Below, piece by piece: positions 17,917-23,046 of a stretch of DNA of 64,000 bases. The stretch is from an uncultured Chthonomonadaceae bacterium (GTDB taxonomy: Bacteria > Armatimonadota > Chthonomonadetes > Chthonomonadales > Chthonomonadaceae), in assembly GCA_963835065.1 (NCBI GenBank), contig CAWIEK010000034.1:26970-90969 (forward strand), written 5' to 3'. The notes beneath the pieces are model-generated. The model saw nothing but the letters and a program-made list of their open reading frames with translations, did no database searches and had not been told where the DNA came from. Numbering within the stretch: position 1 is the stretch's first letter; each line of letters starts with the position of its first letter. A program made the position numbers and the translations under genes.

Positions 17917-18741
17917 ATGAGCGACAATACCACTGAAGTTATCAATACTGGCGCAAGCGCCGCCGAACCGCCGCGCACTTCTGGCTTGCGCTGGAAGCGG
18001 GTTTTGCTGAAACTGTCCGGCGAGGCATTTGCGGCGGAACACGGCGTGAGCGAAAACGCGGGACGCGAAATGAGTACCACTCCCCGCGTCGGCCTGAATT
18101 ATGGAACCATCCGCGCCATCGCTGCTGAAGTCGTTCAAGCGCACCATGCGGGCGTGGAAATCGCCATTGTGATCGGCGCGGGCAACATCGTGCGGGGTGA
18201 ACGCGCAGCCGAAGCGGGCATGGAGCGGGCGGCTGCCGATTATATGGGCATGTTGGGTACGGTCATCAACAGCATGGCCTTGCAGGACGCATTGGAAAAG
18301 CAGGGCGTCCCGACCCGCGTGATGAGCGCGATTGCCATGTCGGAAGTGGCCGAGCCGTTTATCCGCCGCCGCGCCATCCGGCATCTGGAAAAAGGCCGCG
18401 TGGTCGTCTTAGCGGGCGGAACCGGCAACCCCTTCTTCACAACCGACACCGCCGCCGCCCTGCGCGCCAATGAAATCCGGGCGGGCGCAGTGCTGAAAGC
18501 CACGAACGTAGACGGTGTTTACGACAAAGACCCGCGCAAATTTGCCGATGCGAAGCGCCATACCCGCGTCACGTATGACGAGTGCATCTCCAACAACCTG
18601 CGCGTGATGGATCAAACCGCGTTTACTTTTTGCCGCGAATACGACATTCCCATCGTGGTCTTCGACATCGCCCAATCCGGCAACATCCGCCGCGTGGTCA
18701 TGGGCGACAACATCGGCACTCTCGTCAGCAGGGGAGCGTAG
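17917..18741 (+). CDS. pyrH: uridylate kinase
   Basis: [34 protein letters not shown]. Confidence 0.97.
18696..18731 (+). repeat. pyrH 3' end, copy 1 of a 36-bp direct repeat
   Basis: GGTCATGGGCGACAACATCGGCACTCTCGTCAGCAG, identical at 21229-21264. Confidence 0.95.
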
Positions 18742-18903
18742 TTTCCGGTTCACCACAGAGACACCGAGACACAGAGGATTCACAGAGGGAATGGCGAACA
18801 AAGGAGAACAAAGAGGGTAGTTTCGTTTGTGTGCGGCTATGCCTCATGTAAACCTCTGGCGTGGTTGTGTCGTATGTCAGGCAACAGTGGGAAGAAGGAT
18901 GTT

Positions 18904-19428
18904 ATGAGCGTCACAAAAGATTTCATTCGGCAGCCGTCGCTGTCTTCACGAGAGATAGAGCAGGCTGTTGCCATTGCCATTGCCGTTGTAGAAACAAGCC
19001 CTCTGCTGCGCCCCCCGCGAATGGTGGAGCAGCGTACAAATGCTTTTGCCGCATGGCTTGAGGAATGGCGAAACAAGTTTGCGCCTTTCATCGCGTCGGC
19101 TTTGCGTTGTGAAGCCGCCGAGGTGTTTGCCGATATGCCGGACAGCGTTTTAGCGGAAGTTGTGGCGCGGCAGATTTGGCCCGGTGTTGTGCCCCTCCTG
19201 CAATCCGTTGCCATTGATTATCAGGCAGGCGAATGGGGGCGCAGGCATTTCGGGGACGCGACAATGTACTATACGGCCATTCAGGAAAACGGTCGCTGGC
19301 GCGTCCCGATTGGCATAGCGCGCAGAGAAGGAATACAGGGCCAGATTGTATTAGATACAGACGGCAACGTCATTGAAAGCCTGACATCAACAAAGGCGCA
19401 ACTTTTAGAGAAACTCCGTGATAACTAA
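18904..19428 (+). CDS. hypothetical protein A1 with PepSY-like C-terminus; paralog of 21295-21888
   Basis: AAGGA RBS; WRVPIGI..GQIVLDTDGNVI; overlaps the next gene. Confidence 0.7.
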   Translation: MSVTKDFIRQPSLSSREIEQAVAIAIAVVETSPLLRPPRMVEQRTNAFAAWLEEWRNKFAPFIASALRCEAAEVFADMPDSVLAEVVARQIWPGVVPLLQSVAIDYQAGEWGRRHFGDATMYYTAIQENGRWRVPIGIARREGIQGQIVLDTDGNVIESLTSTKAQLLEKLRDN

Positions 19429-19906
19429 CTTTCCTCTGCTGCAACAGCGTCCGGGCAGTAACAGGTGTTTATCAACAGCAGTTCGCGTGGTGTTACTGTG
19501 GTCTGGCGAACAGGTAACAGCAGATGAGGTTTCCGAATGGTGCGCTGAAGACACCTATGGACGCGTATTGGATTTGGCAATAGGGGGATTACGCGATGCA
19601 GGTTTCGACGTTCAGGAGTTGACAGCGCCCACAGAGGAAGAAGCGCAGGAATTGTTACGCGCCTCGGTCATGGATGAAGAGGAACCGCATCCTGTTATCG
19701 TCACGCTGCGAAATCAATTGTCGCCCGCGCGTCTGGATCACGCTGTCGTGTTGGTCGGCGTTGAGCAAATATTTACGCTCACAGGCGAACGTGAAACAGT
19801 GACGTTCATGGACCCAGTGACCGGACGCCTGGAACAGGACACAACGGGAACATTCTGGCGGCAATGGGAATTCGCCGGACGACGCGCCTACATCATTCAG
19901 CCTTGA
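19418..19906 (+). CDS. C39-like (papain-fold) cysteine peptidase B1
   Basis: LQQ....NRC, PVIV, HAVVLVG, FMDPVTG, FWRQW: Q-C-H-D residue order. Confidence 0.75.
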   Translation: MITNFPLLQQRPGSNRCLSTAVRVVLLWSGEQVTADEVSEWCAEDTYGRVLDLAIGGLRDAGFDVQELTAPTEEEAQELLRASVMDEEEPHPVIVTLRNQLSPARLDHAVVLVGVEQIFTLTGERETVTFMDPVTGRLEQDTTGTFWRQWEFAGRRAYIIQP

Positions 19907-19961
19907 TGACGATACCTCGAATTGCCTGAGCAGCAGTCCTATAGACAGAAGGAAGCAGACT

Positions 19962-21143
19962 ATGAGCGGCGGCATTTTTGTACTTCAGGAGAACGGCAGT
20001 CTGGTTGAGATGCGGCAGGAGCCTTACAATGCTGAAGCCGTGCTTCAGCGATTAGTCGAAGAGTATCCTGCTTTGCTGGCAGGCGATCAAATGGACAGTA
20101 ACGCGCCGCGTAGGTGGCTGCTCGTGAAGCGCGAAATGGAAGTTCCCGATACCTCCGACAGCAGTGGGCGATGGTATCTGGATCACTTGTTTTTGGATCA
20201 GGACGGCATACCAACTCTGGTAGAGGTAAAACGCAGCACGGACACGCGCATACGCCGTGAAGTGGTCGGGCAAATGCTGGATTACGCGGCGAACGGCGTG
20301 GCGTACTGGCCGGTGGGAACGCTGCAAACCAATTTTGTCGCAACCTGGAAAGAGAAAGCAAACCAGAAGTTGGCAGACTTCCTGATGGTGGATGAGAATG
20401 ATGCCGGTGCTGACAATCTGGACGGATCGGATCCAGAAACAAATCCTGCTGTCGAGGCGTTCTGGCAGAAAGTGAGCGCGAACTTGCAGGCCGGGAAACT
20501 GCGCCTTTTGTTTGTCGCGGATGAAATACCAACGGAACTTCAACGCATTATCGAATTTCTGAACGAGAAAATGGACAGCGTAGAAGTGCTTGGCGTTGAA
20601 ATCAAGCAGTTCGCCGGACAACAGATGAAAACGCTTGTTCCCCGTGTCATCGGGCAGACAGCAAAAGCAGTAACGCAAAAAAGCGCGAACACTATTAGTA
20701 GTGGGGGCAGACAATGGAACGAAACAACGTTCTTTGAGGACATGACAGCCAGAGGCAATGTGGAAGCAAGCAATGCCGCCCGTGCTATCTTCAATTGGGC
20801 GCGTTCACAGGGAATTGATGTTTGGTGGGGATCGGGCAAACGGTATGGTTCTTGCGTTCCCTATTTTCATCATAAAGAGAGAAGTAATCAGTTATTTGTA
20901 CTATGGAGCAATGGCTACATAGAATTCTACTTCCAGCATTTAGGCAACAAGCCGCCATTTAACGACATCACAAAACGCGAGGAACTTCTTGGCAAACTTA
21001 ACTCCATTGCCAATGTTGATATTCCAAAAAGCAAAATTGCAAGCCGTCCGAGCGTACCGCTAACGATATTCAGCGAACCGGGAAGCTTGTCACAACTGTT
21101 GCAGGTTATGGGCTGGGTGGTTCAGGAAATCAAAACGTCTTAA
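19962..21143 (+). CDS. PD-(D/E)XK nuclease (NucS/DUF91-like N-terminus) with a separate C-terminal domain
   Basis: E..LQ, RE, LDHLFLD, LVEVKRS..RREVVGQMLDY. Confidence 0.8.
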   Translation: MSGGIFVLQENGSLVEMRQEPYNAEAVLQRLVEEYPALLAGDQMDSNAPRRWLLVKREMEVPDTSDSSGRWYLDHLFLDQDGIPTLVEVKRSTDTRIRREVVGQMLDYAANGVAYWPVGTLQTNFVATWKEKANQKLADFLMVDENDAGADNLDGSDPETNPAVEAFWQKVSANLQAGKLRLLFVADEIPTELQRIIEFLNEKMDSVEVLGVEIKQFAGQQMKTLVPRVIGQTAKAVTQKSANTISSGGRQWNETTFFEDMTARGNVEASNAARAIFNWARSQGIDVWWGSGKRYGSCVPYFHHKERSNQLFVLWSNGYIEFYFQHLGNKPPFNDITKREELLGKLNSIANVDIPKSKIASRPSVPLTIFSEPGSLSQLLQVMGWVVQEIKTS

Positions 21144-21228
21144 ACGTAAATTAGCAAAGGAATGGGAACTATGAGCCGAATGGAGGGCTTGTATGAGCGT
21201 CTTGCTGCGTTTGGCATAGATAACGCGA

Positions 21229-21264
21229 GGTCATGGGCGACAACATCGGCACTCTCGTCAGCAG
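21229..21264 (+). repeat. second copy of the pyrH 3' end
   Basis: 36-bp identity to 18696-18731 (40/41 bp if extended to 21224). Confidence 0.95.
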
Positions 21265-21294
21265 TTCGGCGTAAACTGTACCAGAGGTGCAAAA

Positions 21295-21888
21295 ATGACA
21301 GTGTTAGCAAATATACAAGTGTTGGACGATTGGCTGGCGGAGCCACAAACTAAAACGGGCTTGCAGCGTTGTGCAGACAATGCCATTGCTGCGATTGACG
21401 CAAGCCTGTCTCTGCGCATACCTAAAACCGAGCAGGAACGGCAAAACGCCTTTGCCGGCTGGCTTGCAGGGTATCGCGCCAAGATTGGCGTCGAACTTCA
21501 AAAACAGTTTGCGCGGGAGTTTCCCAGCCTGTTCCAATGCCTTAGCGAAAACACGATCAAAGAAACTGTTGACAGCTATGTGTGGCCGCTAATCGAGTCG
21601 GACGTTCAGAAACGTTTCCAGCAAAGACTCATTCCTTATGCCGTGCTAAGTCAGGCAATTGCCTGGGGTCGTAAAAACATAGGAGATGTCGGTCTTTACG
21701 GCCAACCTCAGCACGATGGCTGTCTATGGCGCGTTGCCCTGGGTATTGCGGGATACGGGGAGAATCTGGGGCAAATCACGCTGGACGCGGACGGTAACAT
21801 TCTCCTGGAACAAACAACAACACGTCAGGAACTCCTAAAACATATCCATGATTACCCTTCCGTTCCTGCTGAGGCAGTCAACGCCTAG
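21295..21888 (+). CDS. hypothetical protein A2 with PepSY-like C-terminus; paralog of A1
   Basis: GAGGTG RBS; NAFAGWL, WGRKNIGD, WRVALGI..GQITLDADGNIL align with A1. Confidence 0.72.
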   Translation: MTVLANIQVLDDWLAEPQTKTGLQRCADNAIAAIDASLSLRIPKTEQERQNAFAGWLAGYRAKIGVELQKQFAREFPSLFQCLSENTIKETVDSYVWPLIESDVQKRFQQRLIPYAVLSQAIAWGRKNIGDVGLYGQPQHDGCLWRVALGIAGYGENLGQITLDADGNILLEQTTTRQELLKHIHDYPSVPAEAVNA

Positions 21889-22349
21889 CGGCTGCCTGCC
21901 AACGACAATTCGCGCCGTTTTGCTATGGGCGTTGTGCGAAGAAGCGCCAGAGGATTGCGCAGAAAACCTTGTGTCTGAGCGTAAGATTACTCTGCTATGC
22001 CATCAAGACGAAACCGTTATTGGCTGTGATTGGGACGTTGCTCTGCCGGAGCTGGGACAGGCATACAACGTAGAGGATTTAACGGAAGATGAGGAAGGGA
22101 TACGAGAAATTTTCCAGAACGTGCGCGAACTCGCAGCCTGTGATTGTTGTTTTGGGCGATCCTGCCGGCTTCGCAATAGGCACACACGCGGTAGCAATTC
22201 TGGACATCATTCCCAACGCGCAGGATACCGACGGAGAAACGGTTGTTTTTTACGATCCTGCGCGTGGTGAACTTCGAGAAATGAGAGGCATAGATTTTTG
22301 GAGCGCCTGGAGTCTCGGCGGCGAGTACGCCTTCATCATTCAGCCTTGA
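21848..22349 (+). CDS. C39-like cysteine peptidase B2; apparent frameshift near 22125
   Basis: LRQSTPSGC in ORF 21848; PVIV..THAVAIL..FYDPARG..AFIIQP in ORF 22089-22349. Confidence 0.7.
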
Positions 22350-22431
22350 TGATGGTAAATCGAATTGCCTGAGCAGTCCTCATGCGCCAACAACGCGCAG
22401 CGTCTAAAAACAGACAGGAGATAAGGCTTAT

Positions 22432-23046
22432 ATGGAGCCATTCATACGCTTAACAGGGATTGCCGCGCCATTGGATCGCGTCAATGTGGATACCGACCAG
22501 ATTATTCCCAAACAGTTTTTGAAGCGGATCGAACGCACCGGATTCGGGCAATTTTTGTTTTTCGATTGGCGCTATCGGGAAGACGGCAAAACCCTGAACC
22601 CGGATTTTGAATTGAATGTGCCCGCCCTCCAAGGCGCCAGTATTTTGATTGCCGGGAAAAACTTCGGCTGCGGCTCGTCGCGGGAACACGCGCCCTGGGC
22701 CTTGCTGGACTACGGCTTTCGCGCCGTGCTTGCGCCCTCCTATGCCGATATTTTCTACAACAACTGCTTCAAAAACGGCATCCTGCCTATCGTCCTGCGG
22801 GAAGCAACCATTAACGCTCTGCTGGCGAAAGCGAAAGCCGAGCCGGGCTGCGAATTGACTATTGATCTGGAAAAACAAACGATTACGGACGCGCAGGGGC
22901 TGGAAGAACCCTTTGAGGTAGACAGTTTCCGCCGCCACTGCCTGCTCAACGGACTGGACGACATCGGCCTGTCACTGCAACACGTAGCAGACATCGCCAC
23001 GTATGAAGCGCAGCGTCCACAGTGGAAGCGGGGCGTGGCAGTCTAG
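22432..23046 (+). CDS. leuD: 3-isopropylmalate dehydratase small subunit
   Basis: [36 protein letters not shown]. Confidence 0.97.

Follow-up and report, generated by a model that had tools for sequence, protein, structure and literature searches.

A two-gene unit, here called A-B, occurs in two diverged copies downstream of pyrH in a 64,000-nucleotide stretch of DNA (the window) from an uncultured soil bacterium of the Chthonomonadaceae (phylum Armatimonadota). The window lies on contig C34 (CAWIEK010000034.1) of an 8.0-Mb genome (assembly GCA_963835065.1), labeled G000 among the genomes that we compared. We conclude that A-B is probably a type II toxin-antitoxin (TA)-like module in which B is a protease toxin and A is its inhibitor. 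A preliminary description of this DNA had proposed such a protease and inhibitor together with a neighboring nuclease. The first part of that proposal is supported by the co-occurrence of the two genes, a predicted interface between their products, AbrB/MazE-like fusions of A, and one-sided loss of B, but the role given to the nuclease did not hold up. The module is patchily distributed, and its two genes are conserved as a pair.

A stand-alone C39 peptidase and its predicted partner

B1, the intact B protein of the window, has the sequence and predicted structure of a C39 cysteine peptidase, as had been proposed. It scored 25.0 bits against PF13529 (cut-off, 24), and a profile built from 20 B sequences matched the PCAT1 peptidase domain with an E value of 3.9e-10 and with the Gln, Cys, His, and Asp residues in register. 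The AlphaFold2 (AF2) model of B1, with a predicted local distance difference test (pLDDT) score of 93, showed a papain-like C39 fold with matches to PCAT1 (Z 16.8) and StbD-CT (Z 13.2), and Foldseek also matched it to this fold with an E value of 1.2e-6. By sequence, B was far closer to exporter C39 domains (E 4e-10) than to StbD-CT and the Cpe1-type entry (E 0.14-0.68). A wider B profile, applied to proteins of 79 to 291 amino acids, retrieved 135 proteins at E ≤1e-15. Of these, 120 were listed; they are 131 to 162 amino acids long and keep the Gln, Cys, His, and Asp in 119, 118, 119, and 119 cases, respectively. Among those listed, the few homologues with a named source belong to Armatimonadetes, Anaerolineae, or Okeania, and many of the homologues of about 150 amino acids are labeled "ABC-type bacteriocin exporter" in IMG. 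The motifs reported earlier as common to the A proteins, the Q10-C17-H108-D132 set of B, and its A(Y/F)IIQP ending were all present.

Bacteriocin processing was considered as a task for B and rejected, because no exporter or precursor peptide is encoded nearby. The Walker A motif GxxGxGK[ST] of ABC transporters was absent from all six frames of the window, and the neighbors of the module are pyrH, a nuclease-like gene (N), and leuD, so that the setting is not that of a PCAT/AMS exporter. The preliminary description had likewise noted that no ABC transporter or precursor peptide was close by. A hydropathy scan, which is not a signal-peptide predictor, showed neither a 19-residue stretch with a hydrophobicity above 1.6 nor a basic N terminus leading into a hydrophobic core, in keeping with the earlier view that signal peptides are absent. 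B also carries no delivery domain, in contrast to interbacterial C39 toxins of the Cpe1/StbD type. A second cysteine of B1, Cys42 (19541-19543), is kept in every one of the 20 B proteins in one alignment and is often accompanied by a further Cys after Gly48 (Arg there in B1); most of the wider clade has Leu in its place. Cys42 is a possible redox or metal site.

The A proteins belong to no Pfam, NCBIfam, or PADLOC family (nothing above the cut-off in NCBIfam), and PADLOC gave no match for A1, A2, or B1 and only an E value of 0.003 for the C-terminal piece of B2. The AF2 model of A1 (pLDDT 89) consists of a helical N-terminal lobe and a C-terminal helix-plus-sheet lobe. The top fold match of the C-terminal lobe was the C-terminal (PepSY) domain of YpeB (Z 6.8; root mean square deviation, 2.5; 71 residues) and the second best was the fungalysin prodomain (Z 6.4); these scores are middling, and a Z score under 8 may reflect a common arrangement. 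Foldseek with A1 returned no match at E ≤0.001, and an atlas search with A1 returned only hypothetical clusters with a low score (0.75). None of the 66 long-form A members matched Pfam PepSY (PF03413) at E ≤0.1, and the best short-form score was 13.9 bits against a cut-off of 24, with one short homologue at an E value of 0.068. The likeness of A to PepSY is thus a middling one of predicted fold only, and A does not match the PepSY family; of the previous PepSY assignment, this structural likeness remains but the family match does not.

The C-terminal lobe of A occurs in three forms, namely, the long form found here, a form of about 120 amino acids with an AbrB/MazE-like N terminus, and a short form of about 100 to 130 amino acids. 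The domain that the long form shares with the AbrB form (hhalign, 99.3%) and with the short form (hhalign, 96.7%) has G117-D118 as its best-kept motif, and the best-conserved residues of A are R36, P38, A108-W111, G117, and D118. PF04014 was detected in 6 of 29 AbrB-form proteins at E ≤0.1, once above the cut-off, and the source databases name proteins of this form MazE or AbrB, with one cluster named from Poribacteria. A search of PDB sequences with the AbrB-form profile gave only alphaRep noise. An exhaustive search with the A profile found 123 clusters at 50% identity, five of which (P0097, P0105, P0107, P0112, and P0131) are giant proteins that were dropped as false positives due to Ig/cadherin repeats. 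The A domain is also found behind a P-loop kinase-like domain (P0064), a PD-(D/E)xK-like domain (P0120), and two AbrB-like segments (P0095). At L047:1435-2655, L050, and L051, a PepSY-like domain related to the C-terminal lobe of A heads genes that we take from their motifs to encode DNA methyltransferases, two of them followed by what is presumably a restriction-enzyme-like gene, and no C39 gene adjoins them.

Prediction of the A1-B1 complex yielded the interface anticipated in the preliminary description, with an ipSAE of 0.80 compared to 0.00 for the best of three controls. Of 157 solved complexes, 116 attained this mark, as did 2 of 215 mismatched pairs, counts that are rough with our own alignments. 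The A1-B1 runs shared at least 65% of contacts, and the partner pLDDT was at least 85. In the model, the contact residues of B1 (14-15, 18, 49-53, 96-109, and 143-154) flank C17 and H108, and those of A1 (30-37 and 102-124) contain the best-conserved residues of A. The GDA strand of A and its neighboring helix (102-124) touch B residues 103-109, just before the catalytic His, and the LRxP loop (30-37) clasps the C-terminal helix of B (143-154). The model supports the binding of A1 to B1 at the substrate cleft.

Linkage of A and B in related genomes

In a set of 61 genomes, the same 7 carried both A and B, always adjacent, and the other 54 had neither with the queries used. We additionally surveyed A loci in 351 genomes of the phylum and four further relatives, setting aside methyltransferase-type and weak matches. 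The 34 distinct A loci comprised 21 with a whole adjacent B, 6 where B is broken, 4 that lack B, and 3 at contig edges, so that B adjoins A at 27 of the 31 decidable loci. Among the 21 whole B genes, 20 lie downstream of A and 1 lies upstream, and in one only the last residues are shifted. All seven genomic loci with an AbrB-form A are followed by B. From the side of B, the 18 profile matches of at least 60 bits (13 of which were in the profile) all adjoin an A-type gene, and no whole B of at least 50 bits lacked an A-type neighbor in the survey. Ten further B matches in short frames included six with an A-type neighbor, one at a contig end, and three with none. The neighborhood survey that the preliminary description had called for lends support to the pairing of A and B.

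An intact A stood beside a broken or missing B at eight loci, namely, B2 of the window, G155b, G024, G223:C274 (which lies near a contig end), G037, G284, G084, and G217. At two more loci A itself was broken and B was broken or gone. The weak A matches in long frames that were left out of the tally were methyltransferase-like at L047, L050, and L051, the others not being individually annotated, and the supposed A domains of L054 and L074 were not borne out. The identities of A and B were correlated (rho, 0.60), which reflects linkage and kinship and is not taken as evidence of coevolution. The order is reversed at L110 (G293:C318), where a C39 gene is followed by a short PepSY-like gene.

Locus structure, insertion sites, and the neighbor N

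The genes of the locus follow the order rpsB-tsf-pyrH-A1-B1-N-(copy of the pyrH 3' end)-A2-B2-leuD (Table 1).

Table 1. Features of the A-B locus (positions in the window)
Feature	Position	Strand	Basis and remarks
pyrH (UMP kinase)	17917..18741	+	PF00696, 134.7 bits; synteny with relatives; closes rpsB-tsf-pyrH; its 3' end is the insertion site
D1 copy 1 (50-nt direct repeat, pyrH 3' end)	18691..18740	+	Repeat comparison
A1, predicted antitoxin/inhibitor	18904..19428	+	174 amino acids; helical N-terminal lobe (LRxP 35-38) and C-terminal PepSY-like lobe (GDA 117-119)
B1, intact stand-alone C39 cysteine peptidase, candidate toxin	19418..19906	+	162 amino acids; GTG start; Q10, C17, H108, D132
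D2 copy 1 (49-nt direct repeat, B 3' end and downstream bases)	19885..19933	+	Repeat comparison
N, nuclease-like passenger gene	19962..21143	+	PADLOC PDC-S11, E 2.8e-13; not conserved with the module
D1 copy 2 (pyrH 3' end), directly before A2	21224..21273	+	Repeat comparison
A2, second intact A protein	21295..21888	+	197 amino acids; 30% identity to A1; 59% to A of G001 (same genus)
B2, second C39 peptidase, frameshifted	21848..22349	+	Frame change near 22120-22131
D2 copy 2	22328..22376	+	Repeat comparison; leuD is next, at 22432

The two pairs had been described as a duplicated two-gene module, and A1, B1, and A2 are indeed intact and paralogous to their counterparts, but B2 is frameshifted. 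A1 and A2 share 30% identity across 181 columns (E 1e-27) and B1 and B2 share 35%, in both cases far beyond chance, and the reading frames overlap by 11 nucleotides (A1/B1) and 41 nucleotides (A2/B2). B2 has its Cys half in one frame and its His/Asp half in the next, a change that the preliminary description did not mention and that argues against two functional copies. No sequencing piece spanning the B2 frameshift was present among the matches listed from public runs. B2 is likely decayed or misassembled, with A2 still intact. A profile search of the whole genome found no A frames beyond these two and no B frames beyond the three here. The third-codon-position GC content of A, B, and N (0.52 to 0.55, compared to 0.67 to 0.77 in the flanking genes) indicates atypical codon use. 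A scan for promoters and terminators found signals no more often than in shuffled sequences. A short element between pyrH and A1 (18749-18790) has 121 occurrences spread over 38 contigs of the genome. It often forms inverted pairs with a few hundred bases between the partners and resembles a repetitive extragenic palindrome or a miniature mobile repeat.

The copies are bounded by the direct repeats D1 and D2, also unmentioned earlier, whose copies are 90% identical in each case and which are each found just twice in the genome. In the genomes compared, frr stands immediately beside pyrH in 24 of 30 loci and A-B follows pyrH in 4 of the 30; among relatives that carry the module, A-B follows pyrH in five of six. 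Other A-B sites are between two genes that we take to be carA and carB and after a presumed guaA. In G002, a 1.4-kb islet with A and B only (L013:6949-8432) lies between a tRNA-Ser gene and a 31-nucleotide copy of its 3' end, and contains no integrase. Searches of plasmid and viral collections, with few queries, did not find the module. A-B occurs at unrelated chromosomal sites, with an accessory, mobility-like distribution. The usual pyrH-frr link is broken in the genome of the window, where leuD (22432) follows the module and frr-uppS is on another contig (G000:C65:35367-35930); G002 likewise has a different gene after pyrH.

The history of the two copies can be read in part from G001, a genome of the same genus with the order pyrH-A-B-N-frr. 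Because its A is 59% identical to A2 and its pyrH-A junction aligns at 75% identity to D1 copy 2 and the start of A2, the sequence comparison makes it likely that pyrH'-A2 is the resident copy and that A1-B1-N is a second allele stacked by recombination at the pyrH end. The junction between N and the pyrH copy is not just an assembly artifact, since a contig of the independent run X2 also runs from N into this copy. A1, A2, and G001 fall in one supported clade, in which A1 and A2 are not each other's closest relatives. Recent in-place duplication was rejected, as an exclusive clade of the A1 lineage and A2 did not pass the approximately unbiased (AU) test (P = 0.013; G308 was left out, and the tested group was named after the first tree was seen).

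N, which carries what we presume to be a PD-(D/E)xK motif, matches the PADLOC candidate defense family PDC-S11. It was found in 3 of the 61 genomes, adjoins A-B (after B) in 2 of the 7 carriers, G000 and G001, and is also present in G006, which has no A-B match. N was ruled out on these grounds as a core part of the module, contrary to the preliminary description. In the X2 contig, the 3' part of N (20682-21152) is replaced by 469 other letters, which suggests that N may have a swappable C-terminal domain.

Proposed function, alternatives, and relation to known systems

In the proposed mechanism, B would act as a stand-alone cytoplasmic C39 cysteine peptidase that cuts an essential host protein, and A would neutralize it by binding across the substrate cleft, as the model predicts. 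Loss or displacement of A would free B, which, by analogy with other C39 enzymes, may cleave after a small-residue (Gly-Gly-like) site. The AbrB-fused forms of A may also repress their own operon, and the long-form A of the window is probably expressed by read-through from rpsB-tsf-pyrH. At this locus, recombination would have added a second A-B(-N) unit at the pyrH 3' end, and B2 would have decayed (or be misassembled), with A2 remaining intact. GyrB/ParE can be named as the target of B only as a guess by analogy, and an improbable one.

Several observations weigh against this interpretation. Binding at the cleft is equally expected of a substrate, and the model does not separate an inhibitor from a substrate. 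The immunity proteins of StbD-CT and Cpe1 bind exosites and not the active site, and the sequence similarity of B to these toxins is negligible (E 0.14-0.68). No promoter-like site was found upstream of the long-form A in the window, and no DNA-binding domain was detected in A1 or A2. No homologue with this architecture was found on plasmids with the few queries used. Three of the short-frame C39 matches (34 to 39 bits) have no A neighbor. Conversely, the PepSY-like domain of A occurs without B, N-terminally on DNA methyltransferases and alone at four loci, and is therefore not solely a C39 partner. The 8-to-0 asymmetry in the loss of B versus A is suggestive at most, because the carriers are related metagenome-assembled genomes rather than independent cases and frameshifts in such genomes can be assembly errors.

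The same interface would be expected if the pair were a regulated-proteolysis switch, in which a nontoxic B cleaves A (a repressor in the AbrB forms) on a signal, as ImmA cleaves ImmR and IrrE cleaves DdrO. The predicted contacts pass the segments flanking C17 and H108 as a substrate would, G117-D118 is the most strongly kept part of the domain shared among A proteins, and repressor-type AbrB fusions exist. However, A has no Gly-Gly at this motif, no DNA-binding domain that cleavage could inactivate was detected in the long form, and there is no shared third gene to control, the neighbors being different at every site. A harmless B should moreover be left alone as often as A, and the survey shows otherwise. 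We consider such a switch unlikely.

Many TA pairs act against phage, and the same protease chemistry could serve in phage-triggered abortive infection, with A as a sensor removed by a phage protein or by host shut-off and N acting alongside. The PDC-S11 match of N (E 2.8e-13), its position after B in G000 and G001, and the replacement of its 3' part in a related strain, as often occurs in diversifying defense genes, are consistent with this scenario. It nevertheless appears quite unlikely, as N stands beside A-B in only two of seven carriers and occurs in G006 without it, neither A nor B has a PADLOC match worth citing, and most loci are in housekeeping operons rather than defense islands. 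The least probable of these alternatives is a nontoxic peptidase with a dispensable processing task, for which A would be a dedicated chaperone, adaptor, or safety inhibitor (similar to a propeptide provided in trans or to staphopain-staphostatin). A role of PepSY domains as propeptides and as inhibitors of proteases has been described (PMC6393860), the fungalysin prodomain (Z 6.4) is among the fold matches of A, and staphopain-staphostatin complexes are among those of B. Against this, no signal peptide, exporter, or precursor peptide was found nearby, and the AbrB fusions would be unexplained. A useful routine job for B is also disfavored by the patchy distribution (7 of 61 genomes), the changing sites, and the frequent decay of B. 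We favor a protease toxin with its inhibitor.

The C39 domains of PCAT/AMS exporters (PCAT1, 8vp3/4ry2; ComA, 3k8u/5xe8; 6mpz; PF03412 and PF13529) match the fold of B with Z scores of 16.4 to 16.8 and root mean square deviations of 2.2 to 2.4 and have the Q-C-H-D set and a size of about 140 residues in common with it. Unlike these domains, B is a free-standing protein (131 to 162 amino acids) encoded beside a gene for a dedicated partner, and genes for a transporter or leader peptide are absent from its surroundings. Secreted C39 toxins are likewise among the fold matches of B (8ssm, Z 13.2; 9l5u). Such toxins cleave GyrB/ParE at Gly-Gly, and immunity proteins that bind an exosite block them (10.64898/2026.05.07.723447; 10.1101/2024.12.30.630690); Tox-PLC39 is included among the polymorphic toxins (PMC3482391). 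StbD-CT/StbI (contact-dependent inhibition) and Cpe1/Cpi1 (type VI secretion system) resemble A-B in pairing a cytoplasm-acting C39-fold protease with an adjacent gene for its binding partner; StbD-CT and Cpe1 are parts of large secreted proteins delivered into other cells, with the immunity gene after the toxin gene. In contrast, A-B includes no delivery domain, the A gene generally comes before B, and the PepSY-like A protein is predicted to sit at the cleft.

Type II TA modules with AbrB/MazE antitoxins (MazEF and VapBC) are similar to A-B in having two small overlapping genes with the antitoxin first, an AbrB-like N terminus and a partner-binding C terminus in some A homologues, and a patchy, site-hopping distribution. 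They differ in that the toxin of A-B would be a papain-fold protease rather than a nuclease or transferase, and the A proteins of the window have no AbrB part. PepSY domains are linked to M4 metallopeptidases. In its model, A resembles PepSY/YpeB (PF03413) in a helix and three-stranded sheet, but it is below the family cut-off and cytoplasmic and is partnered with a cysteine peptidase instead. Staphopain is secreted as a zymogen, and the staphostatin fold is different from that of A. To judge from PDB titles, this pair too consists of a papain-fold protease coencoded with a cytoplasmic inhibitor.

The only TA system with a protease toxin that we found is of the LetA-LetS type, in which the toxin is serine-protease-like and the antitoxin is an AAA-ATPase (PMC3874152). 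Within the portions available, three other papers (PMC6393860, PMC4158269, and PMC9561280) treat PepSY, C39, or proteases in other settings only. No cytoplasmic C39 protein with a PepSY-like or AbrB partner was found in the literature searched, which included few subscription journals and did not extend to the supplements of TA-prediction surveys, where such pairs may be listed. A-B is likely an undescribed TA pair, with a toxin chemistry not found in that literature.

A broader interpretation, about as likely as not, is that A-B represents an overlooked and widespread class of type II TA modules. In this class, a stand-alone C39 protease toxin would cleave an essential protein of the cell that makes it and would be held by a cytoplasmic PepSY-like antitoxin that plugs its cleft and can be joined to alternative N-terminal modules (AbrB, a helical lobe, or none). 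The toxins, filed as bacteriocin exporters, may correspond within the cell to the secreted C39 toxins that cut topoisomerases. Most toxins of type II TA systems act as nucleases, kinases, or transferases. If the interpretation is correct, a papain-fold protease toxin would be a new TA chemistry with a new target to be found, and many C39 proteins of about 150 amino acids now named "ABC-type bacteriocin exporter" would acquire a function. The unnamed PepSY-like domain would likewise gain a role, and inhibition of the PepSY type would be extended to cytoplasmic cysteine proteases.

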